Positions 991-55,674 of a DNA stretch of 64,000 nt are shown here, piece by piece. The number at the start of each line of letters is the position of its first letter. Position 1 is the first letter of the stretch. The stretch lies in the IMG/VR virus record IMGVR_UViG_3300028173_000001, one strand, 5' to 3'. The position numbers and the translations under genes are program-made. The stretch is from an uncultured virus (IMG/VR IMGVR_UViG_3300028173_000001). Lineage: Duplodnaviria > Heunggongvirae > Uroviricota > Caudoviricetes. The notes under the pieces are model-generated. The model worked only from the letters and a program-made list of their open reading frames with translations. It was not told where the DNA came from and made no database searches.

Positions 991-995
991 AGTTT

Positions 996-1049
996 CGTGT
1001 AAGAGTCGTCGTTTCATGGTATAATGGATATGTCACCGGGAATGGTGAC
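996..1049 (+). promoter_or_regulatory. early-promoter/hairpin repeat copy 1
   Basis: GTGTAA 997-1002, 17 bp, TATAAT 1020-1025; hairpin GTCACC-GGGAAT-GGTGAC 1032-1049. Confidence 0.85.
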
Positions 1050-1066
1050 TTGACCCAGGAGAGACC

Positions 1067-1438
1067 ATGTCGAAGATTGAAGACCAGCGTGCTGAGTATC
1101 GTAAGCTCCGCGACGAAATCTGTGAGCTGACCGGTCATACCCCTGAGGCTGTGAATAAGCGAATCAAGGGTGACCGTGTGTTCACCTCGAATCGTGGCTG
1201 GCTTGTCGCCGCTGAGTGGACCCTAAAGCAGGCCCGCAAATTCAGCGTGAAACGGAAAAGTGATAACTACTCCGTCAACTTCAAGCTCGTCGGTGAGCCC
1301 CAGCTTTGCAAAGAGTGGATTGAGAATCTCATCGCCGGTTATCACCCCTGCGGATACGGCACCCGGGCCACGAAGGTTGAAACCCTTTCTGACGGTCGTG
1401 AGGTTTGGACCGCATACCGCGCCACCTCGTGTGACTAA
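1067..1438 (+). CDS. hypothetical early protein
   Basis: AGGAG RBS directly after repeat copy 1; 123 aa. Confidence 0.75.
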   Translation: MSKIEDQRAEYRKLRDEICELTGHTPEAVNKRIKGDRVFTSNRGWLVAAEWTLKQARKFSVKRKSDNYSVNFKLVGEPQLCKEWIENLIAGYHPCGYGTRATKVETLSDGREVWTAYRATSCD

Positions 1439-1723
1439 ATGAACCCATACCAAACGAAAATAATAACTGAATTCATGAACTGCCACGGTGCTGAGTGCGT
1501 CGAATTGTATGTTACACCTGCAGGAACGGCAAACGCGTGTATCACGGGAAAGTGTTCAGTCATGATTTCTGCACCTGGAAGAATCACATACCACATATTC
1601 GATCGCGACCGAGGCTGGGTTAAGCACAGGTCTGATTCGCTGCCGGCAGTTATCCATCCAAATGGCCAGACTGAACGCTGGGAATATGGAATTAAACGGC
1701 GTGATCGGATAACATACGTGTAA
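1439..1723 (+). CDS. small protein with TEFM N-terminus and HRSDSLPAVIHPNGQTERW (MORN-like) motif
   Basis: Paralog motifs; stop codon is the TAA of the next repeat's GTGTAA. Confidence 0.7.
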   Translation: MNPYQTKIITEFMNCHGAECVELYVTPAGTANACITGKCSVMISAPGRITYHIFDRDRGWVKHRSDSLPAVIHPNGQTERWEYGIKRRDRITYV

Positions 1724-1772
1724 GAGTGCGAAAAGTGTGGTATAATATTTATGTAATCCGGACCGATGGTCC
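1717..1772 (+). promoter_or_regulatory. early-promoter/hairpin repeat copy 2
   Basis: GTGTAA 1718-1723, 17 bp, TATAAT 1741-1746; hairpin GGACC-GAT-GGTCC. Confidence 0.8.
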
Positions 1773-1792
1773 CAGAACGCCAGGAGCGCATC

Positions 1793-2047
1793 ATGAACGC
1801 ACGTACTGCAGAAAAACGATTTGTCAACTACAAAAGCACGTGTGACCACTGCAACAACCACCTTTCCGGTGGGAGCCGGGATGCACCGAAAGTGCGTGGC
1901 TATCTGACTGAGCTGGACGGGGTTCCGGTCTTGTTCACAGGTGAGTGCTGCGACTTTGACGGTGTCCATGAGGCATTCATGACGCGACTGGTTGAAGACA
2001 ACCTGCTCCAGCGCCAGGTGAGCTCTCGCCAGTCTCGGGCGTGGTAG
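1793..2047 (+). CDS. hypothetical protein, possible Zn-binding (CDHC...CC)
   Basis: AGGAG RBS before ATG 1793. Confidence 0.65.
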   Translation: MNARTAEKRFVNYKSTCDHCNNHLSGGSRDAPKVRGYLTELDGVPVLFTGECCDFDGVHEAFMTRLVEDNLLQRQVSSRQSRAW

Positions 2048-2054
2048 AGAGATA

Positions 2055-2396
2055 ATGCACCTACGATATACAGAGCTGATCACGAAGCTAATGGCGTGCC
2101 CTGACGTTGCGATTGATAAGATCGTTCCGGTACAGGGCTCGCCTGGTAGCACTGACGAATCGTATGTCGTGAACATCACTCATTTCGGAATCAGGACATA
2201 TAGCGTGTATCTTGCTCTTTCGGATGACCACGTCGTCCCATATTTTATGGAAGGGCACGTTGATGACACATATGGCGTGCTCTTTTCCGGCGTGAACTAT
2301 TGGGCGCGAATCCATGGGTACCCGTCGGATATTGGGCACGAAATGAACATGCTGGAAATGAAAATCGAAGAAAAACTTGTTACAATGACATTATGA
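2055..2396 (+). CDS. hypothetical protein
   Basis: 113 aa ORF in operon context; N-terminus (TELITKLM) loosely resembles the TEFM family. Confidence 0.6.
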   Translation: MHLRYTELITKLMACPDVAIDKIVPVQGSPGSTDESYVVNITHFGIRTYSVYLALSDDHVVPYFMEGHVDDTYGVLFSGVNYWARIHGYPSDIGHEMNMLEMKIEEKLVTMTL

Positions 2397-2593
2397 AAAA
2401 GAAACAAAAGCAAGTCGAAGTAAACGAAATCAGCGTCAACCTGAAAGGTGTTGGAAAACCGACATTGATTCCGTTGTCTCTCGAAAACATAATGTCGTTG
2501 GTCGGGAAGTATCGAACGATTGCAGTTAGTTGCCCAATCAATCCGGATGAACCATATCTCTACGTTTGGGCAGACCCAAAAAGAGGGACCTAA
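2393..2593 (+). CDS. hypothetical protein
   Basis: ATGA overlap; ends 2 bp before repeat copy 3. Confidence 0.55.
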   Translation: MKKKQKQVEVNEISVNLKGVGKPTLIPLSLENIMSLVGKYRTIAVSCPINPDEPYLYVWADPKRGT

Positions 2594-2594
2594 A

Positions 2595-2648
2595 CGTGTA
2601 AGAGTCGTCATTTCGTGGTATAATGTATATGTTGCCGGGGAGGCCGGC
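2595..2648 (+). promoter_or_regulatory. early-promoter/hairpin repeat copy 3
   Basis: GTGTAA 2596-2601, 17 bp, TATAAT 2619-2624; hairpin GCCGG-GGAGG-CCGGC. Confidence 0.85.
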
Positions 2649-2668
2649 GCCATAACAAAGAGGTTCTC

Positions 2669-3100
2669 ATGAATAAGTTTGATTGCTATGTTGGTCTGGA
2701 AGTTTACTTTGGCCGCCCAGGCGGTGAGCAGACTCGTGCACGTGTCACCAAGGTGAATCGCGTGAAGGTGAAAGTCGAGCAGCTTGAGCCACGTCGCCAA
2801 GGGCGGCGCCCGGTGGGCACCATCTGGACTGTGCCTCCTAGCTTGCTAAGCGTGACCAATGAAGGTCCTGCTCCATCTCCGGTCGACTCGCCGAAGCCAC
2901 GTCGAGCTGGTGACAAAATCGTGTTCCCTGAGAGTTTCTACCGAGGTGACAAGGTCACTTTCGTCTCGTCTCGGACTGGAATGCGGGTGACCGGTTGGGT
3001 CAAACGTGTGAATCGCAAAACCGTTTCGGTTGAGCCTGAGGGTTACGTCTACGGTTCGACGTATTACCGCGTTCCCCCACACATGCTCTCCAAGGTCTAA
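2669..3100 (+). CDS. tandem SH3/Tudor-like beta-barrel protein
   Basis: Internal duplication: VTKVNRVKVKVE..WTVPPSLL vs VKRVNRKTVSVE..YRVPPHML; GAGG RBS. Confidence 0.7.
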   Translation: MNKFDCYVGLEVYFGRPGGEQTRARVTKVNRVKVKVEQLEPRRQGRRPVGTIWTVPPSLLSVTNEGPAPSPVDSPKPRRAGDKIVFPESFYRGDKVTFVSSRTGMRVTGWVKRVNRKTVSVEPEGYVYGSTYYRVPPHMLSKV

Positions 3101-3346
3101 GTGGACCCGAGAGTGCTAAAGCTCATCAACGATGTCATGCATGATGTCGTTGTTTCGAGTATTGAGTTCGGGTTTGATGATTGTGTGCTTTTGTTTCACT
3201 CGGCAGGACACGTTCATGTCGATGGCCAAGATTACGCCACATACTGGATGGATCATGATCGAGAACTCCACCGGGATAATCACTTGCCGGCTGTAGTTTA
3301 TGCCGATGGGAGCGGAGAGTGGTGGGTTCACGGGGAGCCTGATTGA
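3101..3346 (+). CDS. small protein with HRDNHLPAVVYADGSGEWWVHG (MORN-like) motif
   Basis: Motif shared with 1439, 3343 and 7173. Confidence 0.7.
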   Translation: MDPRVLKLINDVMHDVVVSSIEFGFDDCVLLFHSAGHVHVDGQDYATYWMDHDRELHRDNHLPAVVYADGSGEWWVHGEPD

Positions 3347-3648
3347 TGACGCCAAAACAAGCGTTGGCTGTTACGAAGTTGCTCGCCTCAGGTCATACCT
3401 GCGAATTTCAGGAGGCGCATAAAAAATTCATCGTATTCGTTCCGGCTGCAAATCGTCCGATATCAGTTTCACTTTCGAGTGGTGAAGATGTTATCATCTC
3501 ACCGGACGGCAAACTTATTTACATCAATGCCGAGGGGAAGTATCATCGTGTTGGAAAACCGGCCGTGGTTTACCCAAACGGAGACGTCGAGTTCTGGGAA
3601 GATGACATGTTCGTCCGTGGGGTCGCCAGCGGAGAAATATATTTCTAA
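3343..3648 (+). CDS. small protein with HRVGKPAVVYPNGDVEFW (MORN-like) motif
   Basis: Paralog motifs; ends just before repeat copy 4. Confidence 0.7.
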   Translation: MMTPKQALAVTKLLASGHTCEFQEAHKKFIVFVPAANRPISVSLSSGEDVIISPDGKLIYINAEGKYHRVGKPAVVYPNGDVEFWEDDMFVRGVASGEIYF

Positions 3649-3650
3649 AA

Positions 3651-3719
3651 CGTGTAAGATGGCTCAAATCGTGGTATAATGTATATGTTCCCGGGGAAGG
3701 GGACCTGAAACTACGGAGC
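3651..3719 (+). promoter_or_regulatory. early-promoter/hairpin repeat copy 4 with leader and RBS
   Basis: GTGTAA 3652-3657, TATAAT 3675-3680; hairpin GTTCCC-GGGGAA-GGGGAC; leader GAAACTACGGAGC shared with copy 9. Confidence 0.85.
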
Positions 3720-3724
3720 CCTAA

Positions 3725-4153
3725 ATGCTGCACACCAAAGCCATGACGAAAGCCACCAAACGCCTGGGGAAGGCTCCCATGATGTCCCGCGAAGGTCGGA
3801 AAGCCTGGGGTGTTCACGGAGAGTACACATACTCCTGGTATGTTCAGGACGGTGAGGCTATGAGCCTTCACGTTCGTCGTTCGGCTGATATGCCTGATTC
3901 GATGACTGACTACTTTCCTGGTTTCTACCCGGATAACATCACCCAGCTCCTCAACTACATATGCCCTCCCCCTCCGAAATACAAGGTCGGCTCCCTGGTC
4001 GAAGGTCGTGCTAAACAGCCGAAGCGGTCAGTTCACCTTGCCGGAAAGCAGGGGTTGGTACTCTCCCACATGACATACGGTGGCTACATGATTCTCTGGG
4101 CTGACAAGACCAAGTCAGACGCCCGGGAAAAAAGCCTGCAATTGATTGCCTAG
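3725..4153 (+). CDS. hypothetical protein with C-terminal SH3/KOW-like region
   Basis: GGAG RBS; YKVGSLV...YMILW motif. Confidence 0.7.
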   Translation: MLHTKAMTKATKRLGKAPMMSREGRKAWGVHGEYTYSWYVQDGEAMSLHVRRSADMPDSMTDYFPGFYPDNITQLLNYICPPPPKYKVGSLVEGRAKQPKRSVHLAGKQGLVLSHMTYGGYMILWADKTKSDAREKSLQLIA

Positions 4154-4165
4154 CTCGTTCAGTTT

Positions 4166-4221
4166 CGTGTAAAACGTCCCCCAACGTGGTATAATTACTA
4201 TGTTGCCGGGGATGGTTCCCC
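4166..4221 (+). promoter_or_regulatory. early-promoter/hairpin repeat copy 5
   Basis: GTGTAA 4167-4172, TATAAT 4190-4195; GTTGCCGGGGATGGTTCCCC. Confidence 0.85.
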
Positions 4222-4234
4222 TCTGGAGAAAAAC

Positions 4235-4981
4235 ATGCGAACGAATCAGTTTGACTACATGTATCGCCGCCCCGTCCGGAAGATTGTGCCCTGGACTCGA
4301 ACCACTTACAATGGGAGTCGGTTTCCTGGTGAGCGCAATGATTGTGCAGTTCGCGCGGCCATGACGGTCTCCGGAAAAACGTACAAAGAGGCACATGCTT
4401 GGGCTGAGCGACTCGGTCGCCGACCTCGCCGTGGGACACCAACTCATCGAATCTACTCGAGCATGATGACCGGCCGCCTGCTGGGCGTCAAAATCTCGAA
4501 GGTTCCCCACATTCATCCAAGCAAAAAACAGACGATTGGTGTGTTTCTTCGTGAGAACCCAACCGGCACGTTTTTCTGCCAGATGCGAGCCCATGTGTTC
4601 GCGGTCATTGATGGAAAATGCATCGACACGTGGGGTGTTCCCCTGGGCTCACGGATTGTGAATGCCTGGGTCGTTGGAACATACAAGAAGAAAGAAAAAC
4701 CTGCCAAGAAGAAGACTGCCAAAAAGGTTGTCAAGCGGGTTGGCGTCAAAAAGAAGGCCACGAAGGCAATGGCTCGACGAACTCGGGTCAAAAACAAGCT
4801 TGTCAAAAAGCTTACGCGAGATGGCATTCGTTTCGTACAACAGACACCGACACAGCTCATGCGCCTAATCGACGGCGATGTGAAAGTGTATGGCGACATT
4901 ATGTGGCTCTGCGCGAATGACAAAAGCTTCATTCGCTGTGATGTGGCCGGCACAAAACGAAAGCATTTCATCATCAAGTAG
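4235..4981 (+). CDS. papain-like (C39-type) fold protein with Lys-rich H1-like linker
   Basis: NDCAVRA ... HVFAVIDGKCIDTW (Cys-His-Asp spacing); KKKEKPAKKKTAKKVVK tract. Confidence 0.55.
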   Translation: MRTNQFDYMYRRPVRKIVPWTRTTYNGSRFPGERNDCAVRAAMTVSGKTYKEAHAWAERLGRRPRRGTPTHRIYSSMMTGRLLGVKISKVPHIHPSKKQTIGVFLRENPTGTFFCQMRAHVFAVIDGKCIDTWGVPLGSRIVNAWVVGTYKKKEKPAKKKTAKKVVKRVGVKKKATKAMARRTRVKNKLVKKLTRDGIRFVQQTPTQLMRLIDGDVKVYGDIMWLCANDKSFIRCDVAGTKRKHFIIK

Positions 4982-4989
4982 GAAACACC

Positions 4990-5679
4990 ATGCGAATGAG
5001 TCTTGCAATCAATAAATCGGAACGAGGTGCTGTCCTTGCTGCTGTGTATCAGCGTCGACAAGAGAAGTTCGAGGCGATCATGACCGGCCCCGGGCCGTAC
5101 AGGGACTACAAGGAGGCCGCCGCCGTGTTCCTGGATATGGATAAAAGCGATCCAGGCTGGCTTGAAGCTGGTCGTGAAGTCGCCAAACTCCAGGCTGTTG
5201 CACATGCGATTGCTGAAGCCCATGATCCCGCTAAAATCAAGGCGGCGTACAAGAAGCATCGTAAGAGGTACCTCGGCAATCGTAAAAGAAACAGGAAAAA
5301 AGCTGAGCGACGAACTGAGTGGCTCTGCGATTATGACACGATTAGTCGAATCACTGATGGTGCTGCAGAACGTGTGAAGCTATTGCAAACAAATCGTCGA
5401 ATCGACAAAGAGTTTGGCACCGACATGTCCACGCTTTGGAACGCCCAGAACGTCGATCCCAAGGCAACCCGAAAATTCATCGCGACGAAAGAAGAACGAA
5501 TCGTCCCAAAAGATGAGTTCGGCGCCTGGATGTTCTCAGGGGGACTCGCCAAGACCAAGAAAGGCGACGTCGTTATGATTATCGACTGCCAGCCTGGAAA
5601 GCGTAGGTGTGAAATCATGATTGAGGGTGCCAAGAAGGTGGTCTCGAAAAAGACATTGCGCCCTGTCGACGAGGAGTGA
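4990..5679 (+). CDS. hypothetical protein with C-terminal KOW/SH3-like domain
   Basis: AGGA RBS; KKGDVVMIID...CEIMIEG. Confidence 0.7.
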   Translation: MRMSLAINKSERGAVLAAVYQRRQEKFEAIMTGPGPYRDYKEAAAVFLDMDKSDPGWLEAGREVAKLQAVAHAIAEAHDPAKIKAAYKKHRKRYLGNRKRNRKKAERRTEWLCDYDTISRITDGAAERVKLLQTNRRIDKEFGTDMSTLWNAQNVDPKATRKFIATKEERIVPKDEFGAWMFSGGLAKTKKGDVVMIIDCQPGKRRCEIMIEGAKKVVSKKTLRPVDEE

Positions 5680-5897
5680 TGGAAAAGCTGCCACCAATCT
5701 TCACAGGGGACATCGTCAAGGTCGTCAGGCGGAGATCTGTGCCGGAACTTTATGCGCTCATCCTGAAAGGCCCTTACAAAGGTCCTTCTGGATCTGTTTA
5801 TTTCGACATACTTGTCGAAGGCCGGAAACTGATGGCAAAACCTGCCCAACTAGAAAAGCTTCCCGATTCGTGTAAGATGTCTCATCTCGTGGTATAA
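5676..5897 (+). CDS. small SH3/KOW-like protein
   Basis: GAGGAG RBS; TGDIVKV; reads through repeat copy 6 and stops in TATAAT. Confidence 0.6.
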   Translation: MMEKLPPIFTGDIVKVVRRRSVPELYALILKGPYKGPSGSVYFDILVEGRKLMAKPAQLEKLPDSCKMSHLVV

Positions 5898-5922
5898 TGT
5901 ATATGTTGCCGGGGATACCGGC
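5869..5922 (+). promoter_or_regulatory. early-promoter/hairpin repeat copy 6
   Basis: GTGTAA 5870-5875, TATAAT 5893-5898; hairpin GCCGG-GGATA-CCGGC. Confidence 0.85.
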
Positions 5923-5942
5923 CCTACGAATCAGGAGTTACC

Positions 5943-6329
5943 ATGCGAAAGGGAAATCTAGTCCAACTCAACGTCGCGACGTGCTTTTCAGAGCGGAACG
6001 GAGGCGAGTTAACCTGGTCTTTGGGCACCATGGATGATGATGACAACGGCTTGGTCATCGCTCGGCGACCTACCACTGCCAAAGAGCAGAATGAATGGCG
6101 GAACTCGCCCGCTTCACGTGGCATGACCGATGCCGGCGAGACCAAACTCCCGCCCCAGTCGACGATGGTGAAGCTCCGTCGCGACATGTGCTACATGGTT
6201 CTCCGAGCTCGCTGCCAGGTTCGACTTGGTTGGGGCAACCCGATTGGCGGGATGGTCAAGGTGCTTGACACGGAGACCGGCGAGCAGGTTTACCTCAAGC
6301 GAGAACTTGTCGAGGTCGTTTCTAAATAG
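5943..6329 (+). CDS. hypothetical early protein
   Basis: AGGAG RBS; single-gene module between repeats 6 and 7. Confidence 0.75.
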   Translation: MRKGNLVQLNVATCFSERNGGELTWSLGTMDDDDNGLVIARRPTTAKEQNEWRNSPASRGMTDAGETKLPPQSTMVKLRRDMCYMVLRARCQVRLGWGNPIGGMVKVLDTETGEQVYLKRELVEVVSK

Positions 6330-6336
6330 CCGACTA

Positions 6337-6390
6337 CGTGTAAAACTCCGTAAGTCGTGGTATAATGGATATGTTGCCGGGGATACCGGC
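6337..6390 (+). promoter_or_regulatory. early-promoter/hairpin repeat copy 7
   Basis: GTGTAA 6338-6343, TATAAT 6361-6366; hairpin GCCGG-GGATA-CCGGC identical to copy 6. Confidence 0.85.
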
Positions 6391-6406
6391 ATGCCCAGGA
6401 GACACC

Positions 6407-6643
6407 ATGGTTCGCCTTTCAGATAAAGAAAAGAAAGAAATCAAAGATGTCGTTGACCCAGTCATGACCGAATGGGCCATGATTGAGGATAAGTCCTTCC
6501 TTCCCGATCTGCTGAGCACCCTGACTGAGTGTGTTTGCCAGTGGTCGGAGCACACTGACCGCGATTGGTGGTACAAGGAAGAGCGCGATTTCATCGAAGA
6601 GACCATCCTGGCTCGCGAAGAGTTCCAGGGTGAGTACGCATAA
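6407..6643 (+). CDS. acidic hypothetical protein
   Basis: AGGAG RBS before ATG 6407; D/E-rich. Confidence 0.7.
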   Translation: MVRLSDKEKKEIKDVVDPVMTEWAMIEDKSFLPDLLSTLTECVCQWSEHTDRDWWYKEERDFIEETILAREEFQGEYA

Positions 6644-7176
6644 TGACGAAAATCAAATACGATTCAAAAGTCCTGTACGATGAAAACAACAAGAAGTCGT
6701 ACCATGGCACAACGATTCGCACAAAAAATATCAAGTTCGGGAAGGATAAACTCCTGACCCATGAGGTCTCGTTTTATTCGATGTATGGGAATGATGTCCA
6801 CGAGGATGACCGTGTTGTCGCCCGGTGTACTTCTTACTCGAAGGTCGTCGCCGAGTTCCCATCGCTTTGGGCGAGGTCTGAGCCTGGCGGCCGTTTTCTT
6901 GTGTTTGAAGAAGGCACCAAGTGGTCCGGACGGATTATAGAGTTTGACGGGCACATCGTCATTTACTTGTTTTTCGGGGCCGGGGAATACCTGCTCTTTC
7001 AGAAACATGTCGCGCGCGAAACGTTTTTCGCTGATACCTCGGTAATGGCCGGCGAGTGGCTCGAAACTTTCAGGCAAGAAATCATTGAAAATGATGTGCC
7101 AGGCATTTGCCAGGGCGGCAATTTCTCTCGCGAATACCAGCGGTTCACGATCGCAGAGTGGGAGAAAACGAAATGA
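6643..7176 (+). CDS. hypothetical protein
   Basis: TAATG coupling; 177 aa. Confidence 0.7.
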   Translation: MTKIKYDSKVLYDENNKKSYHGTTIRTKNIKFGKDKLLTHEVSFYSMYGNDVHEDDRVVARCTSYSKVVAEFPSLWARSEPGGRFLVFEEGTKWSGRIIEFDGHIVIYLFFGAGEYLLFQKHVARETFFADTSVMAGEWLETFRQEIIENDVPGICQGGNFSREYQRFTIAEWEKTK

Positions 7177-7538
7177 CACCAATTCAGGCAAAAATCGTGA
7201 CTGAGTTTATGATCGAGTTCGGCCCGGAGAACATCACGATCATAGATGGCACCATCGATACAGGAATTAATGGGGTGTCGGTCCTAGTTTCAAACGGCAT
7301 CAATCGTGTTTGGATTGCCGCAGACGGCCGATTTGAGTATTCTGTAAACCCAAACCAAGAATTTCCTGATGAAGATGTTCCATGGTCATGTCACAGAGGT
7401 TTGCCCAACCCGGCTGTACGACACCGTAACGGTGACGAATATTGGATTCACGGAAAACAAACAAACGTTGACTGTGGGTTATTCTTGGAATGGGACGAAA
7501 AAACGAAGACATACCGAAATCTTTATCACGACGTGTAA
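7173..7538 (+). CDS. TEFM / HRGLPNPAV family small protein
   Basis: MTPIQAKIVTEFM...CHRGLPNPAVRHRNGDEYWIHG; stop inside GTGTAA of copy 8. Confidence 0.7.
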   Translation: MTPIQAKIVTEFMIEFGPENITIIDGTIDTGINGVSVLVSNGINRVWIAADGRFEYSVNPNQEFPDEDVPWSCHRGLPNPAVRHRNGDEYWIHGKQTNVDCGLFLEWDEKTKTYRNLYHDV

Positions 7539-7585
7539 GATACCTATCTTTGTGGTATAATGTATATATTGCCGGGGATGCCGGT
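7532..7585 (+). promoter_or_regulatory. early-promoter/hairpin repeat copy 8
   Basis: GTGTAA 7533-7538, TATAAT 7556-7561; GCCGG-GGATG-CCGGT. Confidence 0.85.
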
Positions 7586-7598
7586 CGAGGAGCTGACC

Positions 7599-7841
7599 AT
7601 GAAGATTTACGGAAGCGAAACTCTGCCTGCGAATATCAGGTGGCCCATCCTCGAGTACCCTGATTGCGGCGATATCTTTGCCTACGGGCGGAACTCCAGC
7701 TCTGGCAATCTTCGAGGTAAGGGTGGTGACATCCGCTCCTCTCACAAATCCTCAGCTAAAAAGGCACGCAAACGTCGTGTGCTCAAAAAGGCTGCCCGTC
7801 GAGCCGGTAAGGCCGAATGCAAGGACATGTCCCAATGGTAG
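7599..7841 (+). CDS. small basic protein
   Basis: GAGGAG RBS; KSSAKKARKRRVLKKAARRAGK. Confidence 0.7.
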   Translation: MKIYGSETLPANIRWPILEYPDCGDIFAYGRNSSSGNLRGKGGDIRSSHKSSAKKARKRRVLKKAARRAGKAECKDMSQW

Positions 7842-8068
7842 ATTTTCAAACTGAAATGAAAACGTGCGATAGGATTTCCAATTATTTTATGGTTGGGTTT
7901 ATACTTTCGGCAATGGTAACTGTAACTTGCTTTATCCCAGTCACGGAATCAAGTTTTATGGAAACAAGTTTCTGTTTTCTTACGACAGGACTTCTGGCTT
8001 TCTTCGCAGTGCATTATGCGGTGCAGGTTGATTACTGGACCCATACCTTGAAGGTGCAAAATGACTGA
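7835..8068 (+). CDS. putative membrane protein (2 TM)
   Basis: Two hydrophobic stretches. Confidence 0.55.
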   Translation: MVDFQTEMKTCDRISNYFMVGFILSAMVTVTCFIPVTESSFMETSFCFLTTGLLAFFAVHYAVQVDYWTHTLKVQND

Positions 8069-8411
8069 GCTTATCGATTACGTTTTCGACGCATACCCAT
8101 GCAAACATCGTTCAACCGGAGTACCCCTGGGGGATCCGGATCTTGTCATTGCAATCAGCACATCGATCAATAACCCTTCCACGGCTTGGAAGTTGGCCCG
8201 ACGGCATGTTCGAAAAGCTGATCCTGATGAATCATGGGCGCTATACATGCGTGATGAAGAGAACCCAAAGCGGGTTTCTTTGCCGGTTCCTGGTGGAACT
8301 GTTTCCTGGGCACGCCCATGGGATCGCCTCCGGGATGGACGCATTCATTCACCAGAGTGGAATCGATATTTGGTTGATGATAATGAAAAGGATGTGTTCG
8401 AACTCGTGTAA
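8061..8411 (+). CDS. hypothetical protein
   Basis: 116 aa; stop inside GTGTAA of copy 9. Confidence 0.65.
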   Translation: MTELIDYVFDAYPCKHRSTGVPLGDPDLVIAISTSINNPSTAWKLARRHVRKADPDESWALYMRDEENPKRVSLPVPGGTVSWARPWDRLRDGRIHSPEWNRYLVDDNEKDVFELV

Positions 8412-8473
8412 GACGGTGAAAAACGTGGTATAATATATATGTCCCCGGGGAAGGGGACCAGAAACTACGGAGC
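8405..8473 (+). promoter_or_regulatory. early-promoter/hairpin repeat copy 9 with leader and RBS
   Basis: GTGTAA 8406-8411, TATAAT 8429-8434; GTCCCC-GGGGAA-GGGGAC; leader shared with copy 4. Confidence 0.85.
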
Positions 8474-8478
8474 TTATC

Positions 8479-8712
8479 ATGGTTAACGGTTGGAGCGATT
8501 GGAGCCTGCAGCGCTTGTTCGAGGTCCAGGACATTATCGAAACCAGCGATGGTCGCGATGAGCTTGGTTCTGAGGATTGGCTGGTTCAGTTTGATACCAA
8601 AGAGGCTGCGAACGAGGTCATCGCCAAAATCAACGCCGTGGGTGACAATTGGAAAGCTGTTTCCCATGAGTATGTCACCGGCATGATTTTCATCACGCGG
8701 AAGGTCAACTAA
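8479..8712 (+). CDS. hypothetical protein
   Basis: GGAG RBS after repeat 9. Confidence 0.7.
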   Translation: MVNGWSDWSLQRLFEVQDIIETSDGRDELGSEDWLVQFDTKEAANEVIAKINAVGDNWKAVSHEYVTGMIFITRKVN

Positions 8713-8924
8713 TGGTAACCGCCGGAATCATTCTTTTGTGCATTGGGTTTTTGCTGACTTCAGTGTCAACCATCACGGGCTTCGTGAGTTTGATATTGTC
8801 GTTTACGGTAAACAATGATGAACCGCTAAAAACTACAATGATTTCACTTATCGCCTGGTGTGTTGGTCTAGCGGCCGGCATCGGTGGGTTTATTATGTGC
8901 GGTTACGCCGCGGCAGGTCAATAA
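8712..8924 (+). CDS. putative membrane protein (2 TM)
   Basis: Two long hydrophobic segments; TAATG coupling. Confidence 0.65.
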   Translation: MVTAGIILLCIGFLLTSVSTITGFVSLILSFTVNNDEPLKTTMISLIAWCVGLAAGIGGFIMCGYAAAGQ

Positions 8925-9112
8925 TGAAAAAGGGTGACCTGGTAGAAATCCTGATTGATTCGCCGTTCGTCGGCGGACTGAAGGGCGACATTGGCCAGCT
9001 TTATACCATCATTAGCCACAAATCAGATCCCAGCCTATCCAGGTGGGTTGTTTTGTTTGGCACCGAGTATCATACGCTTTACGACGACGAGTTCAAGGTG
9101 GTAGCATCATGA
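8924..9112 (+). CDS. small SH3-like protein (paralog 1 of tandem triplet)
   Basis: MKKGDLVEI...GDIG...LYDDEFKVV. Confidence 0.65.
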   Translation: MKKGDLVEILIDSPFVGGLKGDIGQLYTIISHKSDPSLSRWVVLFGTEYHTLYDDEFKVVAS

Positions 9113-9333
9113 GTAATTCAAACCCATCACCCTTGATTCGAATAAACAGGACAATAGTAAGTAATAATACTGTCGTGCACGAGGGTTCCATTGGTCTCCT
9201 GGGAAATCCCACGCAGTGCTACAAAAACGTAAGAGGAATATACCAGAAAGGTGCACTGCGTCACACCGGGATCTTTGGAAACGTGAAAATCATCCTTTAT
9301 GAAAACGAGTTCGAACTGGTAGGTGATGAATGA
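9109..9333 (+). CDS. small SH3-like protein (paralog 2)
   Basis: EGSIG...LYENEFELV; ATGA coupling. Confidence 0.6.
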   Translation: MSNSNPSPLIRINRTIVSNNTVVHEGSIGLLGNPTQCYKNVRGIYQKGALRHTGIFGNVKIILYENEFELVGDE

Positions 9334-9542
9334 AGATCGGCGATGTAGTCAAGATTACCAAGACGGACATGTTGTACCCGTCGGTCGCAGTGGGAGATGT
9401 CGGAATGATCTGTTCTTCAGGTAAGATCGCCGGGGAGACCCATGACCCGATTTATGACGTGCTCATTGACGGATTCGTCGCTGCGTTTTACCCTGAAGAG
9501 TTTGTCATCATCGCGTGTAAAGCACCGAAAATCGTGGTATAA
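9330..9542 (+). CDS. small SH3-like protein (paralog 3)
   Basis: MKIGDVVKI...GDVG...FYPEEFVII; stops in TATAAT of copy 10. Confidence 0.65.
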   Translation: MKIGDVVKITKTDMLYPSVAVGDVGMICSSGKIAGETHDPIYDVLIDGFVAAFYPEEFVIIACKAPKIVV

Positions 9543-9567
9543 TGGATATGTCACCGGGATGCGACTC
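9514..9567 (+). promoter_or_regulatory. early-promoter repeat copy 10
   Basis: GTGTAA 9515-9520, TATAAT 9538-9543, GGATATGTCACCGGG. Confidence 0.85.
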
Positions 9568-9810
9568 TAAAACAGTCAATAAACTAAATGGAGCAAAATA
9601 ATGCCAAGCCCACGAGGGCCCCCGAAAATGTGACCCACTGCCGGGGGCGGCGAAAATAACATGAACGGAATAAATTGTGTGATTACAAAGCTAGACATCG
9701 TCAGGAGGGCGTAATGAATCGCATCCGAGACCAGCCCTAAGTTAAGGTCGGCGTCGACCTAGGGCATCAAAAAACATGGAATGTTAGGAAAAAGATAAAG
9801 TTTGACGTTT
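9550..9810 (+). ncRNA. candidate structured RNA / mini-ORF leader
   Basis: No long ORF after a consensus promoter; stems 9557-9567/9716-9726, 9618-9624/9642-9648, and a nested hairpin 9734-9765. Confidence 0.4.
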
Positions 9811-9880
9811 TCCCAATAATTTTGGCGTAGGTCCTGAACTGCAGGCGGGACGCGGGGTTCGACTCCCCGGTTGGGAACCA
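9811..9880 (+). tRNA. tRNA-like element lacking a D-stem (identity undetermined)
   Basis: Acceptor TCCCAAT/GTTGGGA + A + CCA; T-arm CGGGG-TTCGACT-CCCCG; 6-bp GTCCTG/CGGGAC stem with 9-nt loop; only 70 nt. Confidence 0.65.
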
Positions 9881-9901
9881 TTTTGAGAACGGAGAAATAA
9901 A

Positions 9902-10393
9902 ATGAAACTCGCATTAGGCCCAAAAGGGCTGCGCCCAAAGCGCACGCTTATCAAACTTGTCCAGAGTCCCTCAAAAACAAGTGTTGTAATCGTGCGCTCC
10001 CCAGTTTTTTCATTCAACGGAGAATCAACTATTGATTTCGGGGAGCTTGAAGAGCGAAAGCAGACTGTTCTAGAAGATGCAGAATTGTGGAGAGATCGGC
10101 CTGGGTTCATTCGAATTAATGATCCAGATGTCCTGATCGAGACTCAGCGGCCATGGGATGAGGACGAAGAGGTCAGCGTTGAGGTCGAGGTAAACGTCTC
10201 AGTTGAACTCGAAAATCCGGATTACGATGAGCAGCTCAAAAATTACAAGCGGTTCGAGCGAGATTGTAAGAAAGCAGACAAGAAGTATACGAGGGAGCTT
10301 GCCGAGTGGGAAGCCAAACAGGAAATAGTGAAAAACATTAGCAGCGATGAGTTGGATCAATTCATTGCATGGAAAAAGAGGAAAAACAAATGA
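9902..10393 (+). CDS. hypothetical protein with C-terminal coiled coil
   Basis: GGAG RBS; 163 aa. Confidence 0.7.
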   Translation: MKLALGPKGLRPKRTLIKLVQSPSKTSVVIVRSPVFSFNGESTIDFGELEERKQTVLEDAELWRDRPGFIRINDPDVLIETQRPWDEDEEVSVEVEVNVSVELENPDYDEQLKNYKRFERDCKKADKKYTRELAEWEAKQEIVKNISSDELDQFIAWKKRKNK

Positions 10394-10662
10394 GCGCAGC
10401 GGCAATTATTTATCTATGTCTCACCGTCGTCAGCCTTTTTGTCGTCATGACGTTGCATGGAAAAGAAACTAAGACCAACTTCTTCGCGAGCCTTTTCGGC
10501 ACTGCGCTTGTCCTAGGGGTGCTGACATGGGGAGGGTTCTTCGATTCGCCACAGGATCGCCGGCGGGCCCATAAATCGCACATCTCAAATGCCAGCGTCC
10601 ATTGTGTCGTAGCGTTGCCAGACGGCGCCGTCAAACCAGAAATTCTTTGCAACGTTAAGTAG
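10390..10662 (+). CDS. putative membrane protein (2 TM)
   Basis: Hydrophobic helices; LTWGGFF motif; ATGA overlap. Confidence 0.65.
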   Translation: MSAAAIIYLCLTVVSLFVVMTLHGKETKTNFFASLFGTALVLGVLTWGGFFDSPQDRRRAHKSHISNASVHCVVALPDGAVKPEILCNVK

Positions 10663-10666
10663 ATTA

Positions 10667-10720
10667 CGTGTAAGAGTCCGAAAATCGTGGTATAATATAT
10701 ATGTTGCCGGGGATGGTAAC
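10667..10720 (+). promoter_or_regulatory. early-promoter/hairpin repeat copy 11
   Basis: GTGTAA 10668-10673, TATAAT 10691-10696; GTTGCC-GGGGAT-GGTAAC. Confidence 0.85.
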
Positions 10721-52971: not shown

Positions 52972-53853
52972 ATGAAAAAGAAAGTAACAATCGATCCCTC
53001 ACTTCCGTTGCTAAGAAACGGAAAACCACACGTCTCATATTCTGAAGTTAGTACTTGGGCAGGTTGTGGATGGCGCCATGACCTTTTGTATATTCCAGCA
53101 TCAGATGAGGAAATCATAAGCCCATATTTGGATTATGGTACAATCGTCCACGATGGTGGCGAGAGTTTCCTCAATACAAGAACGATAGACATCCCGGCAG
53201 TCCATGAGAAAATCAAGGAAGCCTGGAAGAAACGAGGATTTGATGATGAGGAATGGATCAAGGAACAAACGGCGAGAGCCAGGGCTCAAGGTTGGAAATA
53301 CAAACATGTCGAACTTCCAGGTTGGCTGGAATCGGCAACGAATGCCCTAACACAGCTCCCTGATTTCATGGAAAAGACATTTCCTGGGTGGAAGACTGTC
53401 GAAGCGGAACATATGTTGTATGCTGACGTTTTGAAGACGACCGGTCACTTCAAGGGCTACATCGATTGCGTGATTGAACTTCCCAATGGAAAACATGTCA
53501 TCATCGACTGGAAAACAGCAGGACGATATGGTTGGCAGCGAAGAAAGAAGCAAGACTTCTTGACATTAGCTCAGGTCATTCTTTACAAGCATTTCTGGAT
53601 GCGCCACACAGGAAAGAAATCTCGGGATGTGAAAACAGCATACGTTCTTCTCCACCGTGAAGCAAAGCCAGGTAAATCAGTGTCGATGGTTGAAGTATCA
53701 TCAGGACCGAAGGTCATGGCGAAAGCCGAAAAGATGGTCATCAACATGTTGAAAAACATGGAAGCCGAGTTCACGCTGAAGAACAGATACTCATGCAAGT
53801 TCTGCGAGTTCGCAAACACCGAGCATTGTAAAGGGTATGTTCAGTTGTTCTAG
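52972..53853 (+). CDS. PD-(D/E)xK nuclease, Cas4/AddB-like with Fe-S Cys
   Basis: SYS..C, GTIVH, GYIDC, IIDWKT, Q..LY, CKFCEF..HC. Confidence 0.85.
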   Translation: MKKKVTIDPSLPLLRNGKPHVSYSEVSTWAGCGWRHDLLYIPASDEEIISPYLDYGTIVHDGGESFLNTRTIDIPAVHEKIKEAWKKRGFDDEEWIKEQTARARAQGWKYKHVELPGWLESATNALTQLPDFMEKTFPGWKTVEAEHMLYADVLKTTGHFKGYIDCVIELPNGKHVIIDWKTAGRYGWQRRKKQDFLTLAQVILYKHFWMRHTGKKSRDVKTAYVLLHREAKPGKSVSMVEVSSGPKVMAKAEKMVINMLKNMEAEFTLKNRYSCKFCEFANTEHCKGYVQLF

Positions 53854-54338
53854 GCATTCATATGGGCAATCGAAACGCGACCGACTTTCATGGTTTTACA
53901 CAAATCGCAACCCATGACAAACAAAGTGCATATATCATGATCACTGGTGTTTATGACATAAACCGGCACCCCGCGAAGGAACCCAATCATGGCGAATTTG
54001 CCACGACTAATGATTTTGGGACTCGAGATGTCCGTCCTGAAACTTAGAGAAAATTCAATTATTGTGGCTGCCAGGGGTGATACGACGATCCCGCGGGCCA
54101 TCCCATCACCATGAAGATTCGATGTCATATCACAGAATGCACGAGAAATAGTATCGGTTAGACCTTCGTACCATTCACGGACATTCCCGCTCCACTCCAT
54201 TATCATTGGCGAAAGTATCCCTGTTTTTTCATCGAGAAAATCACCGGGACGTCTTGACCAGTGAAAAATTGTTGTAGGTTCCTCGACCAGGACTTGGTGG
54301 TATATCATGTCTGAGTCAACCTGTAAGTAGTTTCTCAT
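53850..54338 (-). CDS. stand-alone fragment resembling T4-gp23-type major capsid protein
   Basis: WSRRPG.FLD, GNVREWYE.L, GIVVSPLAATIIEF, IGFLRGVPVYV resemble the gp23 mid/C-terminal segment (from recall); AAGGAG RBS. Confidence 0.6.
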   Translation of the reverse strand: MRNYLQVDSDMIYHQVLVEEPTTIFHWSRRPGDFLDEKTGILSPMIMEWSGNVREWYEGLTDTISRAFCDMTSNLHGDGMARGIVVSPLAATIIEFSLSFRTDISSPKIISRGKFAMIGFLRGVPVYVINTSDHDICTLFVMGCDLCKTMKVGRVSIAHMNA

Positions 54339-54426
54339 TTTTCTCCTTTACTATGATATTATTCACGCTCGCCGCGATGTAACACGGTATTTTACTATCA
54401 TCGAATAGCAAGATAGTATTGTATTG

Positions 54427-55674
54427 ATGCAAGTACAAAAAAAGAAAATATTGATGTTGTCAGATCATGCCTTGAGCTCCTCGGGCGTTGGTTGTCAAAG
54501 TAGGTTTTTGATCAACGGCCTTTTGGAAAAAGGGTGCTGGTCGATTCGGCAGTTTGGCGCCGCCCAGAAACACGACAATTATGAAACTGTCGTCGTGAAT
54601 CCTGACTTCATAATCAAGCCCATCGACGGTTTTGGAAATAGAGAACTGATTCTTCAAACCTTGGCTGCCGAAAAACCAGACGTTCTCCTGCTCTTTACGG
54701 ACCCACGATTCTTCATTTATATCTGGGAGATGCACGACGAAATCAACAAGATTTGCCCGATTGCATACTGGCATGTGTGGGATAACCGCCCAACTCCAGA
54801 ATTCAATCGGGTTCTTTATGAAGCGACAGATTTGGTCAATTGCCACAGCCACCTAACATATGAAATGGTAAACGAGATTATTCCGGGGAAGGCGAACTTT
54901 GTTCCTCATGCTCTTCCCGATGAGATTTTCTTTCCTCTACCTGAAAACGAAATCTTGGAACACCGACGACATACACTCGGCGCCGAACGTGAAAATCACT
55001 TCATTGTTTTTTGGGCCAACAGAAACGCAAGGCGGAAAAGACCGGCCGACGTTTTAGAGGCATGGTCGAAGTTCATGAAGAAGCTTGAGAAAGAAGGGAA
55101 ATCAGACGCGACATTGCTAATGCATACTGACCCGCTGGATCAGGAAGGACCGAACCTGCTGGTCATCGCCGAGAAGTTTGGAATCATTGACAGTGTCGTG
55201 TTCTCAACCCAGCGCACAAACTTTGAACAAATGAATGTTCTGCACAACATTACAGATTGCTGCCTGAACATTTCGTACGCCGAAGGTTTCGGTTTGACAA
55301 CCCTCGAATCAATGCAGGTTGGAAATCCAATTATTGCCGTGAAGACAGGCGGTCTGACAAGACAGGTCATCGACCACCGCGATGGCTCAGAAAACGGCAT
55401 CGCCCTTGAAGTCGAAACACAATCGCTGGTAGGCTCTCAGATGGTGCCTTATATATACGAGGACTATGTGGGAACTGAATCTGTGGCCAATGGGCTTCAT
55501 CAGATGTACAGCATGGGTCCCGAAGCCCGAAAGGTGTTGGGTACTAAGGCAAAAGCATACGTGACGTCTGAGTTCAAACTGGAGACAACCATCGACCTTT
55601 GGCATGAATCATTACAAAAGCTATGCGATGATTGGAAATTTGATAACAAGTTTACGATTGAGGAGATTGCATAA
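54427..55674 (+). CDS. GT4 glycosyltransferase
   Basis: LFTDPRF, NRNARRK, AEGFGLTTLES. Confidence 0.9.
   Translation: MQVQKKKILMLSDHALSSSGVGCQSRFLINGLLEKGCWSIRQFGAAQKHDNYETVVVNPDFIIKPIDGFGNRELILQTLAAEKPDVLLLFTDPRFFIYIWEMHDEINKICPIAYWHVWDNRPTPEFNRVLYEATDLVNCHSHLTYEMVNEIIPGKANFVPHALPDEIFFPLPENEILEHRRHTLGAERENHFIVFWANRNARRKRPADVLEAWSKFMKKLEKEGKSDATLLMHTDPLDQEGPNLLVIAEKFGIIDSVVFSTQRTNFEQMNVLHNITDCCLNISYAEGFGLTTLESMQVGNPIIAVKTGGLTRQVIDHRDGSENGIALEVETQSLVGSQMVPYIYEDYVGTESVANGLHQMYSMGPEARKVLGTKAKAYVTSEFKLETTIDLWHESLQKLCDDWKFDNKFTIEEIA

Follow-up and report, generated by a model that had tools for sequence, protein, structure and literature searches.

The window, that is the whole stretch of 64,000 nucleotides that was analysed, belongs to the genome of a large marine phage of 318 kb. 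The ORF listing of the window contains a 162-aa open reading frame on the minus strand at 53850-54338. This frame is referred to as ORF162, and its gene as mini-gp23. The gene and the features around it are as follows.

53850..54338, minus strand: mini-gp23 CDS, stand-alone capsid A-domain protein of 162 aa (ORF listing, homology, AlphaFold2 model, HK97 fold matches and a same-length ortholog)
54343..54348, minus strand: ribosome-binding site AAGGAG, read directly, 4 nt before the ATG and identical in the ortholog locus L005
54358..54386, minus strand: promoter-like site CGTGTTA-N12-CGTG-AATAAT, an exact match and a degenerate look-alike of the early promoter (ACGTGTAAGA-N10-CGTGGTATAAT)
54339..54423, no strand: divergent intergenic region between mini-gp23 and the glycosyltransferase gene, from alignment to the ortholog locus
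52972-53853, plus strand: exonuclease gene, convergent with mini-gp23
54424-55674, plus strand: glycosyltransferase gene, divergent from mini-gp23

The minus-strand frame of 162 aa and its AAGGAG site were both found where the earlier note had reported them. The stop codons of mini-gp23 and the exonuclease gene overlap by 4 nt. The surroundings are a sugar/glycosyltransferase island with heptose-pathway genes, an aminotransferase gene, and glycosyltransferase genes, and ORF162 lies on the strand opposite to every neighbouring enzyme gene. From 113 to 237 kb in the genome, the gene calls include only three on the opposite strand, one of which is ORF162. The head genes are approximately 55 kb away and are also on the other strand. 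The terminator scan identified none after ORF162. Antisense ORFs of this size are common in the window, and many spurious ORFs of at least 100 aa are listed. The size of the frame alone is thus not unusual, and ORF162 is taken to be a real gene because it is homologous to the capsid protein.

This homology is to the phage's own capsid protein. Searched against the genome, ORF162 matched the 632-aa capsid gene at E 1.9e-11 and a paralogue of 168 aa at E 2.0e-11. The alignment to the major capsid protein that the earlier note had proposed gave 36% identity over 111 aa by BLASTP (E 9e-16, capsid residues 426-530). In the family-model alignment, the homology spans capsid residues 426-572 and the last strand, and the last strand of the capsid protein matches that of the family in L124 and L119. 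The 632-aa protein matches Pfam Gp23 (PF07068) at 1.3e-77 (262 bits) and T4 gp23 chains at about 1e-29. Within the segment of the motif G.gNf.v.Sp.va..L, GMARGIVVSPLAATIIE of ORF162 is aligned to GSANFIVVGPDVATIFE of the capsid protein, and this capsid segment is aligned to GEGNFIIASRNVVNVL of T4 gp23. ORF162 itself matched no Pfam family at E<=10, including Gp23 (PF07068) and DUF1884 (PF08967), and no PHROGs family. Against PF07068, the 168-aa paralogue scored 12.6 bits (cut-off 24.4). Among typical relatives, P0039 clearly passes with 43.2 bits, P0004 is at the cut-off (24.4), and the rest are sub-threshold. No gp24-like paralogue, which would be a second full-length capsid protein, was found in the genome.

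The AlphaFold2 model of ORF162 has a pLDDT of 88.7 and a pTM of 0.85. The top Foldseek matches of this model were HK97 capsid proteins, including T4 gp23 and gp24, and four capsid matches had E<=1e-3. By VIA-align, the model matched the P1 capsid (Z 11.4, 134 aligned, rmsd 3.0), S6 (Z 10.8), and T4 gp23 (Z 9.9), and nearly all of the top 50 were capsids or encapsulins. The likeness to gp23, which the earlier note had pointed out, is thus borne out by sequence, profile, and predicted fold, and profile and structural similarity were both found.

Of the capsid fold, the model retains the central sheet together with both A-domain helices and a short piece of the spine helix. According to the family-model alignment, the N-arm, E-loop, insertion domain, and P-domain hairpin are absent. 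An excursion of approximately 45 residues in the capsid protein, between ...ILVGYKG and GTVTCLDMNVI, is a tight turn, GCDLC, in ORF162. At about a quarter of the capsid length, ORF162 does not possess the full HK97 fold (N-arm, E-loop, P-domain, and A-domain). Since it has none of the lattice-linking elements (N-arm, E-loop, and P-domain strands), it cannot tile a shell. The description of it as assembly-incompetent is therefore sound with respect to a shell protein, every HK97 subunit-linking element being missing. ORF162 keeps the invariant or near-invariant residues of its family, W27, R29, P31, G32, F34, T39, G40, G51, E55-W56-Y57-E58, L60, and G119. Most family-invariant positions are also top-conserved in the capsid A-domain (W447, S448, R449, P451, G452 ... 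W482, Y483, L486), and the clade motif YWSRxPG...EWYE.L is common to ORF162 and the capsid proteins of the clade. By homology and predicted fold, ORF162 is a diverged capsid domain, the gp23/HK97 A-domain, from the clade's own capsid protein.

A syntenic ortholog is present in L005. It is also 162 aa in length, shares the neighbouring genes and the stop-codon overlap of ORF162, and is 62% identical in amino acids. The placement in the sugar island is conserved. Between the two genes, pN is 0.228 and pS is 0.650, giving a pN/pS of 0.35 (bootstrap 0.26-0.45). The maximum of 2000 bootstrap replicates was 0.53, and a value of 1 was never reached. The corresponding dN/dS of 0.18 is only approximate because the synonymous sites, with a pS of 0.65, are near saturation. 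A decaying pseudogene, which the earlier note had suggested looking for through dN/dS among relatives, was not what was seen; the ortholog is intact and the ratio indicates purifying selection. The sequence of ORF162 is also identical in contigs of four seawater DNA runs from four studies, with some bins uncovered. Among the sequencing runs listed as containing it, none was of RNA. As judged from these comparisons, ORF162 is an intact gene under purifying selection. It is also a fast one. Eleven neighbouring genes are 76-99% identical to their L005 counterparts against 62% for ORF162, and the dN of ORF162 is 0.27 as compared with 0.009-0.18 in neighbours. Fast evolution is family-wide, as the median distance within the short family is 1.33 and that among capsid proteins is 0.81. 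This may reflect relaxed constraint and not an arms race.

The promoter-like site upstream of ORF162 had been described as an early-type promoter and a near copy of the early repeat. CGTGTTA-N12-CGTG-AATAAT has a single match in the window and none in 100 shuffles. There are 21 copies of CGTGT.A-N12-CGTG genome-wide. Twenty of these are main-strand early promoters, all reading CGTGTAA, and the remaining one, at ORF162, is the only copy on its strand in the genome. Its second box, CGTG at 12 nt, matches the early class. The pair of boxes is therefore real and unique on its strand. The early promoter class of this phage is defined by GTGTAA-N12-YRTG-GTATAAT and a downstream hairpin. On a matrix derived from 11 window copies, the ORF162 site scored -9.7 bits with the standard spacing, -1.0 with one base less, and -10.6 with one base more. 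Genuine early sites score 12-46 bits on the same matrix, and those listed genome-wide score at least 12 bits. The GTGTAA box is invariant in 60 of 60 main-strand early sites; the ORF162 site reads GTGTTA, carries AATAAT one base closer instead of the TGGTATAAT box, and does not have the downstream hairpin of the class. A sigma-70 consensus scan did not call the site and called no promoter on the minus strand.

The ortholog locus adds to this. Only TTACATC and GAATAAT of the promoter-like site are retained in L005, and the CGTG boxes are not conserved. The intergenic region is 92% identical over 111 nt, with differences limited to alignment columns 36-38 (3 nt) and a variable patch of about 23 nt over both CGTG boxes. 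For comparison with this near-identical region, the synonymous-site pS of the surrounding genes is 0.40-0.75. Resemblance to the early repeat is thus limited to the box pair, and early production of the protein is at most a possibility, the likeness failing the matrix test and the boxes differing in the ortholog. A shared upstream motif, TCATAG, was also considered as a common promoter signal. It was rejected because its spacing to the -10 boxes varies.

ORF162 belongs to a widespread family. A profile search gave 351 matches at E<=1e-3, and similar mini-proteins form at least 100 clusters with no Pfam or PHROG family. Of 151 family proteins examined, 117 are 260 aa or shorter. Among these, 115 start with M and two contain the P-domain strand motif. 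In ORF162, the P-domain hairpin has been cut out precisely, as it has in about 100 clusters. Members are 130-245 aa in length and 36-49% identical to the clade's capsid protein. Nine relatives that were compared with PHROGs had no family. The closest clusters in the ESM Atlas, which serve as leads only, are viral hypothetical proteins of 171-184 aa, some with capsid Pfam families. In a plain distance analysis, the short-to-short and short-to-capsid medians are both about 1.3, a value at which single and several origins are indistinguishable.

The 168-aa paralogue is a second stand-alone member in the same genome. It is found in the head-neck module, and its nearest relative is 85% identical. 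This gene and the 243-aa gene of L124 both have the capsid gene on one side and an Ad2-like adaptor gene on the other, in two of two contexts examined, and the context statistics of the family rest on very few loci. Such a placement points towards morphogenesis as the role of the family. ORF162 had been viewed as an inverted, stand-alone fragment. It does stand alone, and the large family and the second copy in the head-neck module had been missed. The second copy raises the odds of a role in capsid assembly. Homing-endonuclease-like genes flank the capsid genes in this genome and in L124. In addition, a conserved 108-aa ORF in the genome carries the most conserved N-terminal capsid segment.

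No short member was found in five other large records with the same capsid clade. A tblastn search of 50,697 phage records gave no match for ORF162, and with the relative P0013 as query only one uncultured phage of 484 kb was matched, in its capsid gene. A mini-protein was not seen in any cultured phage of this set. Scans of IMG/VR and metagenomes returned mostly full-length capsid genes, and short members were seen only in the phage's own record, L004, L005, and L124. L004 is 100% identical to the ORF162 locus and is presumably the same phage.

The preferred reading, which is held tentatively, is that ORF162 mimics the axial face of the capsid in soluble form and acts as a decoy or competitor, with an accessory role in capsid assembly as a close rival. 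This reading starts from the homology, fold, domain boundaries, purifying selection, family size, and genomic context, which are established; the binding, timing, and partner are what we infer. Mini-gp23 would bind whatever reads the capsomer axial face. Its likeliest partner would be something that detects freshly synthesised capsid protein, because ORF162 is outside the head module, is alone on the opposite strand with its own putative promoter, is the fastest among its neighbours, and belongs to a family not found in related phages. The partner may be a host capsid-sensing defence protein, which mini-gp23 would titrate as a decoy. Alternatively, the capsomers of a co-infecting relative may be bound. 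A wider and rather doubtful form of this idea is that large marine T4-like phages may encode soluble capsid-face decoys, which would be free fragments of the phage's major capsid protein with transcription units of their own. The putative set in this genome would consist of the two A-domain copies and the 108-aa ORF with its N-terminal segment. Such pieces would soak up host immune sensors, or other readers of nascent capsid protein, either ahead of the accumulation of the real capsid protein or alongside it. If true, this would be a new anti-defence class that works by self-mimicry. A literature search on phage capsid decoys, truncated gp23 paralogues, and dominant-negative capsid proteins returned nothing relevant, and no phage-encoded capsid decoy was found.

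It is also possible, if somewhat unlikely, that ORF162 helps to build the phage's own head or is an accessory to it. It could modulate assembly, cap or plug capsomers, hold unassembled capsid protein in the manner of a chaperone, or serve as a decoration. The mini A-domain would then bind the A-domain face of the capsid protein or form small rings, and ORF162 would be a diverged second copy with a similar job. Both other members with known context are in the head-neck module (two of two examined), the residues conserved in the mini-proteins are those conserved in the capsid protein, and the genome is without a second full-length gp24-type paralogue. The A-domain helices are described as the main intra-capsomer contacts between subunits (PMC8346489), and, if so, binding of mini-gp23 to the phage's own capsid protein would be at least as natural. 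However, roughly 55 kb separate ORF162 from the head genes, it is encoded on the other strand within a sugar-metabolism island, and its rate of evolution is far above that of the capsid protein. The family is also missing from all five related large records and is therefore not a core head component.

Competition between phages is improbable as the main role. Here, a dominant-negative A-domain would poison the capsomers of co-infecting relatives, and the phage's own capsid protein would be resistant. The clade-wide A-domain motif is kept, the lattice-forming parts are missing, the gene appears to be its own transcription unit, and divergence is quick, all of which speak for it. However, it would have to spare a capsid protein that carries the same motif, and a precedent was not found in the literature.

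A scaffold associated with an enzyme is likewise quite unlikely. Small facets could possibly hold or stabilise an enzyme of the sugar/glycosylation island, as the A-domain-only architecture, the structural match to P. furiosus PF0899 (2PK8), and the heptose-pathway, aminotransferase, and glycosyltransferase neighbours, in a placement conserved in L005, would suggest. However, DUF1884 (PF08967) had no match even at E<=10, phage capsids are better matches (Z 9.9-11.4) than 2PK8, and the 168-aa paralogue and the L124 member are not next to enzymes. The gene is also opposite in strand to the neighbouring enzyme genes, unlike the operons described for this type of protein (PMC8346489).

A decaying remnant of a partial capsid-gene duplication, which homing-endonuclease-like genes near the capsid genes could create, or a chance antisense ORF, of which the window has many, is very improbable and already largely refuted by an intact frame of identical length at 62% identity, a pN/pS of 0.35 that never reached 1 in 2000 bootstraps, a precise excision of the P-domain hairpin common to about 100 clusters, a confident fold prediction, a ribosome-binding site conserved in the ortholog, and an identical sequence in contigs from four seawater runs of four studies.

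The proposed mimic of the capsid face can be compared with known systems. Among the triggers of bacterial immunity, capsid proteins rank with the most common. CapRel, Lit/Gol, PifA, and Pycsar are described as being triggered by them (PMC9712102), and Avs sensors are described as binding conserved capsid-protein cores (10.64898/2026.01.04.697583). These systems establish that nascent capsid protein is read by host immunity, which is what the decoy reading presupposes. For ORF162, such a sensor would have to read the A-domain face.

ORF162 shares with the gp23-type capsid proteins (PF07068) the fold of the A-domain, the motif, and homology to capsid residues 426-572 and the last strand. It differs in being outside the head module, in having no Pfam match of its own, and in its faster evolution. 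The vertex protein gp24 of T4 is a paralogue of the capsid protein with a full-length HK97 fold, and it builds the pentons. Gene 24 is downstream of the capsid gene. Both gp24 and the mini-proteins appear to be duplicates of a capsid gene, and the mini family is often downstream of the capsid gene, but its members consist of the A-domain only. The family profile matched gp24 chains only at E 0.11.

The closest published analogue of ORF162 appears to be the Family 4 A-domain encapsulins (DUF1884/PF08967; P. furiosus PF0899, PDB 2PK8), which are described as stand-alone HK97 A-domains of unknown function that have lost every other domain (Andreas & Giessen 2021, PMC8346489). In that source, self-association of the A-domain is proposed to be retained, and the gene follows an enzyme gene within a two-component operon (PMC8346489). 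The match of ORF162 to 2PK8 is real but middling and below its phage capsid matches (Z 6.1, rmsd 2.9, 83 of 94 residues), and a 241-aa relative gave Z 7.9 over 84 of 94 residues. Family 4 proteins are approximately 100 aa, belong to hyperthermophilic archaea, and reflect an ancient split, whereas members of the ORF162 family are 130-245 aa, belong to marine phages, and clearly come from the clade's own capsid protein. The gene order also differs; mini-gp23 converges on an exonuclease gene on one side, diverges from a glycosyltransferase gene on the other, and is not downstream of an enzyme gene. The ORF162 family represents a clean natural excision of a domain of the HK97 fold inside phages, with more than 100 sequence clusters, multiple copies in one genome, and at least one copy outside the head module that is evolving quickly. 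ORF162 can be put to direct test as a candidate capsid decoy or modulator of capsid assembly. Even if its function is structural, the family would be a new one of accessory head proteins in large uncultured phages. The family also links phage capsid evolution to the unexplained archaeal A-domain encapsulins, and it illustrates a route by which a viral capsid gene can give rise to proteins of this type.

ORF162, the stand-alone 162-aa gene under study, lies on the - strand of a window in which nearly all genes run on the + strand. The window covers bases 199,686-263,685, read on the reverse strand, of a virus record of 318,267 bp, rated 93% complete. The reading frame and the AAGGAG described in the earlier note are both present:

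52972-53853 (+), exonuclease-like gene, convergent with ORF162; the stops overlap by 4 nt
53850-54338 (-), ORF162, 162-aa ORF
4 nt 5' of the ORF162 ATG (-), AAGGAG ribosome-binding site
54386-54358 (-), CGTGTTA-N12-CGTG-AATAAT, upstream of ORF162
54424-55674 (+), glycosyltransferase gene, facing the ORF162 start across 85 nt

Antisense ORFs as long as ORF162 are not unusual in the window, and length alone is no argument. In a crude whole-genome gene call, just three opposite-strand genes were found in the 113-237 kb region: ORF162 and two that flank a 168-aa paralogue. ORF162 lies about 55 kb from the head genes. Its neighbors are an aminotransferase, heptose-pathway genes, a cupin, a nuclease, and two glycosyltransferases. 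A long sugar-modification island surrounds it (32506-56846, +), with a GtrB-like gene, the aminotransferase, heptose kinase/adenylyltransferase-like and phosphoheptose-isomerase-like genes, the cupin, and the two glycosyltransferases.

ORF162 has no match in Pfam, PHROGs, or a tblastn search of 50,697 phage records. Within its own genome it has two relatives, the 168-aa ORF (27% identity across 148 residues, E 3e-14) and a 632-aa protein. The latter is the phage's capsid protein; it matches Pfam Gp23 at 1.3e-77 and T4 gp23 chains at about 1e-29, and its closest relatives are in uncultured huge phages, Flavobacterium phage immuto, Microcystis phage Mel-JY01, and Rhodothermus phage RM378. BLASTP aligns residues 5-105 of ORF162 with capsid residues 426-530 (36% identity, E 9e-16). 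The gp23 segment that the earlier note had pointed to aligns exactly as claimed: ORF162 GMARGIVVSPLAATIIE pairs with capsid GSANFIVVGPDVATIFE, which pairs with T4 gp23 GEGNFIIASRNVVNVL. ORF162 represents a portion of this phage's capsid protein, and the reading as a capsid fragment is supported by this homology as well as by the fold.

An AlphaFold2 model of ORF162, built from a 72-sequence family alignment, has a pLDDT of 88.7 and a pTM of 0.85. The best Foldseek matches are HK97-fold capsid proteins (S6, P1, NF5, T4 gp23, and gp24). A second, independent comparison with 48,161 chains is also led by capsid structures, P1 (Z 11.4, 134 residues, rmsd 3.0), S6 (Z 10.8), and T4 gp23 (Z 9.9), and nearly all of its top 50 are capsids or encapsulins. 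The family-model alignment places ORF162 on capsid residues 441-572; BLASTP pushes the start to 426, at the end of the spine helix. The capsid protein has about 45 residues (SYLETGYVYAPYVPL...) between ...ILVGYK and its last strand, GTVTCLDMNVI, and at that place ORF162 has a GCDLC turn alone, then VGRVSIAHMNA. The end of the family model also matches, separately, the last strand of two other capsid proteins. By these boundaries, ORF162 is the discontinuous A-domain from which the P-domain excursion has been neatly excised. The N-arm, E-loop, and insertion domain are missing, and from the established HK97 architecture the protein would be unable to form a lattice.

A search of 1.84 billion representatives with a profile of ORF162, its ortholog in the syntenic locus L005, and the 168-aa paralogue gave 351 matches at E<=1e-3. 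Of 151 proteins examined, 117 are 260 aa or shorter. All but two of these short proteins (115/117) begin with M, and most end in a capsid-like ...VLDMNII strand. The P-domain strand motif, the marker of true capsid fragments, is in only 2 of the 117. The consensus, YWSRxPGKFVNKxTGE...GTVREWYETLVETIxD...VSPDVATILE...GTLxNRFxVY...VxVLDMNII, is also the most conserved A-domain part of capsid proteins. None of the three invariant or 12 nearly invariant positions is lost in ORF162, which also shares a GCDxC turn with the 168-aa paralogue and P0004 to P0006. The median distance is about 1.3 both among short proteins and between short and capsid proteins, as against 0.81 among capsid proteins. A subgroup of about 240 aa (P0016, P0026, P0033, P0050, P0053, P0056, and others; 8742-9473, +, in L124, a locus of another phage) has about 95 further residues forming an N-terminal domain, and the model matches capsids only over residues 94-240 (T4 gp23, Z 10.9). 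This extra domain, a 33-residue helix with a small alpha/beta unit (model pLDDT 87), had no capsid match in the fold search. The short family is patchy in distribution. In this genome the family model finds the capsid gene and two minis, nothing else, and it finds no minis in five further large records from this capsid clade, only one of them rated complete.

ORF162 is a selected but fast-evolving gene. In IMG/VR it is present at 100% identity in L004, presumably the same phage, and the L005 ortholog, about 62-63% identical, agrees in length, neighbors, and overlapping stops. Between ORF162 and this ortholog, pN is 0.228 and pS 0.650 (Nei-Gojobori), a pN/pS of 0.35 (bootstrap interval 0.26-0.45, maximum 0.53, 2000 replicates); the corrected dN/dS is 0.18, with synonymous sites near saturation. 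By the same method, its protein identity of 62% and dN of 0.27 compare with 76-99% and 0.009-0.18 for 11 neighbors. The 168-aa paralogue has a nearest relative that is 85% identical. Where covered, in contigs of four seawater runs from four studies, the ORF162 region is without any difference.

The earlier note had called the upstream boxes a near copy of the early repeat. The CGTGT.A-N12-CGTG boxes are present, and of 21 in the genome this is the sole one on its strand. However, the site scores -1.0 to -10.6 bits on a matrix made from the 11 window copies of the repeat (ACGTGTAAGA-N10-CGTGGTATAAT, then a hairpin), because GTGTTA replaces GTGTAA (60/60 sites) and AATAAT, one base closer, replaces GTATAAT. 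At 12 bits or more the matrix makes 67 calls across the genome, all but one (66) on the main strand. A generic sigma-70 scan did not call the ORF162 site. Early expression hinges on membership in this promoter class, and the class match fails the matrix. The early-type family itself is very tight (window 995-10719, +, with about 60 more sites genome-wide), and ATATGTTGCCGGGG...CCGG hairpins follow. The intergenic region (54339-54423) is identical to L005 5916-6000 save a 3-nt difference further upstream (columns 36-38) and a patch of about 23 nt that covers exactly the promoter-like boxes; TTACATC and GAATAATATCATAGTAAAGGAG are retained. Against differences at 40-75% of synonymous sites in the flanking genes, this marks the region as clearly constrained and suggests strong constraint, probably regulatory, on both sides of the patch. 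TCATAG occurs within 45 nt upstream of three capsid-family start codons, those of the capsid gene (L002 or L003), the 168-aa gene (L002 or L003), and ORF162:

window 54350-54355, TCATAG
L003 about 2010, TCATAG
L002 about 3120, TCATAG

It is found within 60 nt upstream of 11 of 459 crudely called genes. The sharing may be coincidence, because TCATAG does not keep a consistent position relative to the -10-like boxes.

Other capsid pieces are found elsewhere. The 168-aa paralogue is about 7 kb 3' of the capsid gene, between it and an Ad2-like adaptor gene; a tail-sheath gene follows further on. In L124, a 243-aa member is 1.6 kb 3' of the capsid gene, directly ahead of an adaptor-like gene. In both phages the capsid genes have homing-endonuclease-like genes directly beside them, which could have given rise to partial duplications of the capsid gene:

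L130 13732-14814 (-), homing-endonuclease-like gene adjoining a capsid gene
L124 7264-7926 (+), the same
L124 10844-11788 (+), the same

Outside the window, a 108-aa ORF (G000:C1 about 103.2 kb; L127 1516-1842, -) lies beside a ClpP-like protease gene. Over its last 29 aa it resembles (41% identity, E 9e-7) the ...D.(V/C)S.QPM..P.G.F... segment of the capsid protein, residues 95-123, and Pfam Gp23 matches it at positions 13-56 with 24.9 bits. It is conserved at equal length in three other clusters (72-79% identity) and could represent a second type of free-standing capsid fragment encoded by this genome. We take its capsid segment to correspond roughly to the T4 Gol region, the activator of Lit. 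Gol is described as a 29-residue stretch, the most conserved portion of gp23 (PMC3014915).

These data show that ORF162 encodes an accessory A-domain protein that is folded, under selection, and derived from the capsid protein of this clade. It would display the same conserved face as the capsid A-domain and would act by binding a partner of that face. Two A-domain helices are described as the main subunit contacts in the capsomer (PMC8346489), and therefore the phage's own capsid protein is one candidate partner. A role in capsid assembly through this partner is consistent with the position of other family members in the head module, and is a close rival reading for ORF162. A conflict-related mimic fits this copy somewhat better, because it is relocated, has its own putative promoter, has the highest dN in its neighborhood, and belongs to a family that is dispensable in relatives. 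We tentatively propose such a mimic, which could possibly serve as a decoy for capsid-sensing defense or as an inhibitor of a competitor phage's capsomers. The CapRel, Lit, PifA, Pycsar, and Avs systems are reported to be triggered by capsid proteins (PMC9712102; 10.64898/2026.01.04.697583).

Searches of the published literature turned up no phage protein described as a stand-alone A-domain or as a capsid decoy. T4 gp24 is a full-length capsid paralogue, whereas ORF162 is not full-length. The closest published analogue is the Family 4 'A-domain encapsulins', which are reported in hyperthermophilic archaea and two Bacteroidetes genera as A-domain-only proteins of about 100 aa, encoded in operons downstream of enzymes, with function unknown and a structure, 2PK8 (PMC8346489). 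Membership of ORF162 in Family 4 was rejected, as it has no Pfam DUF1884 match and no enzyme operon. The likeness is in architecture, and the structural match to 2PK8 is moderate and below the matches to phage capsids, with Z 6.1 for ORF162 and 7.9 for a 241-aa relative.
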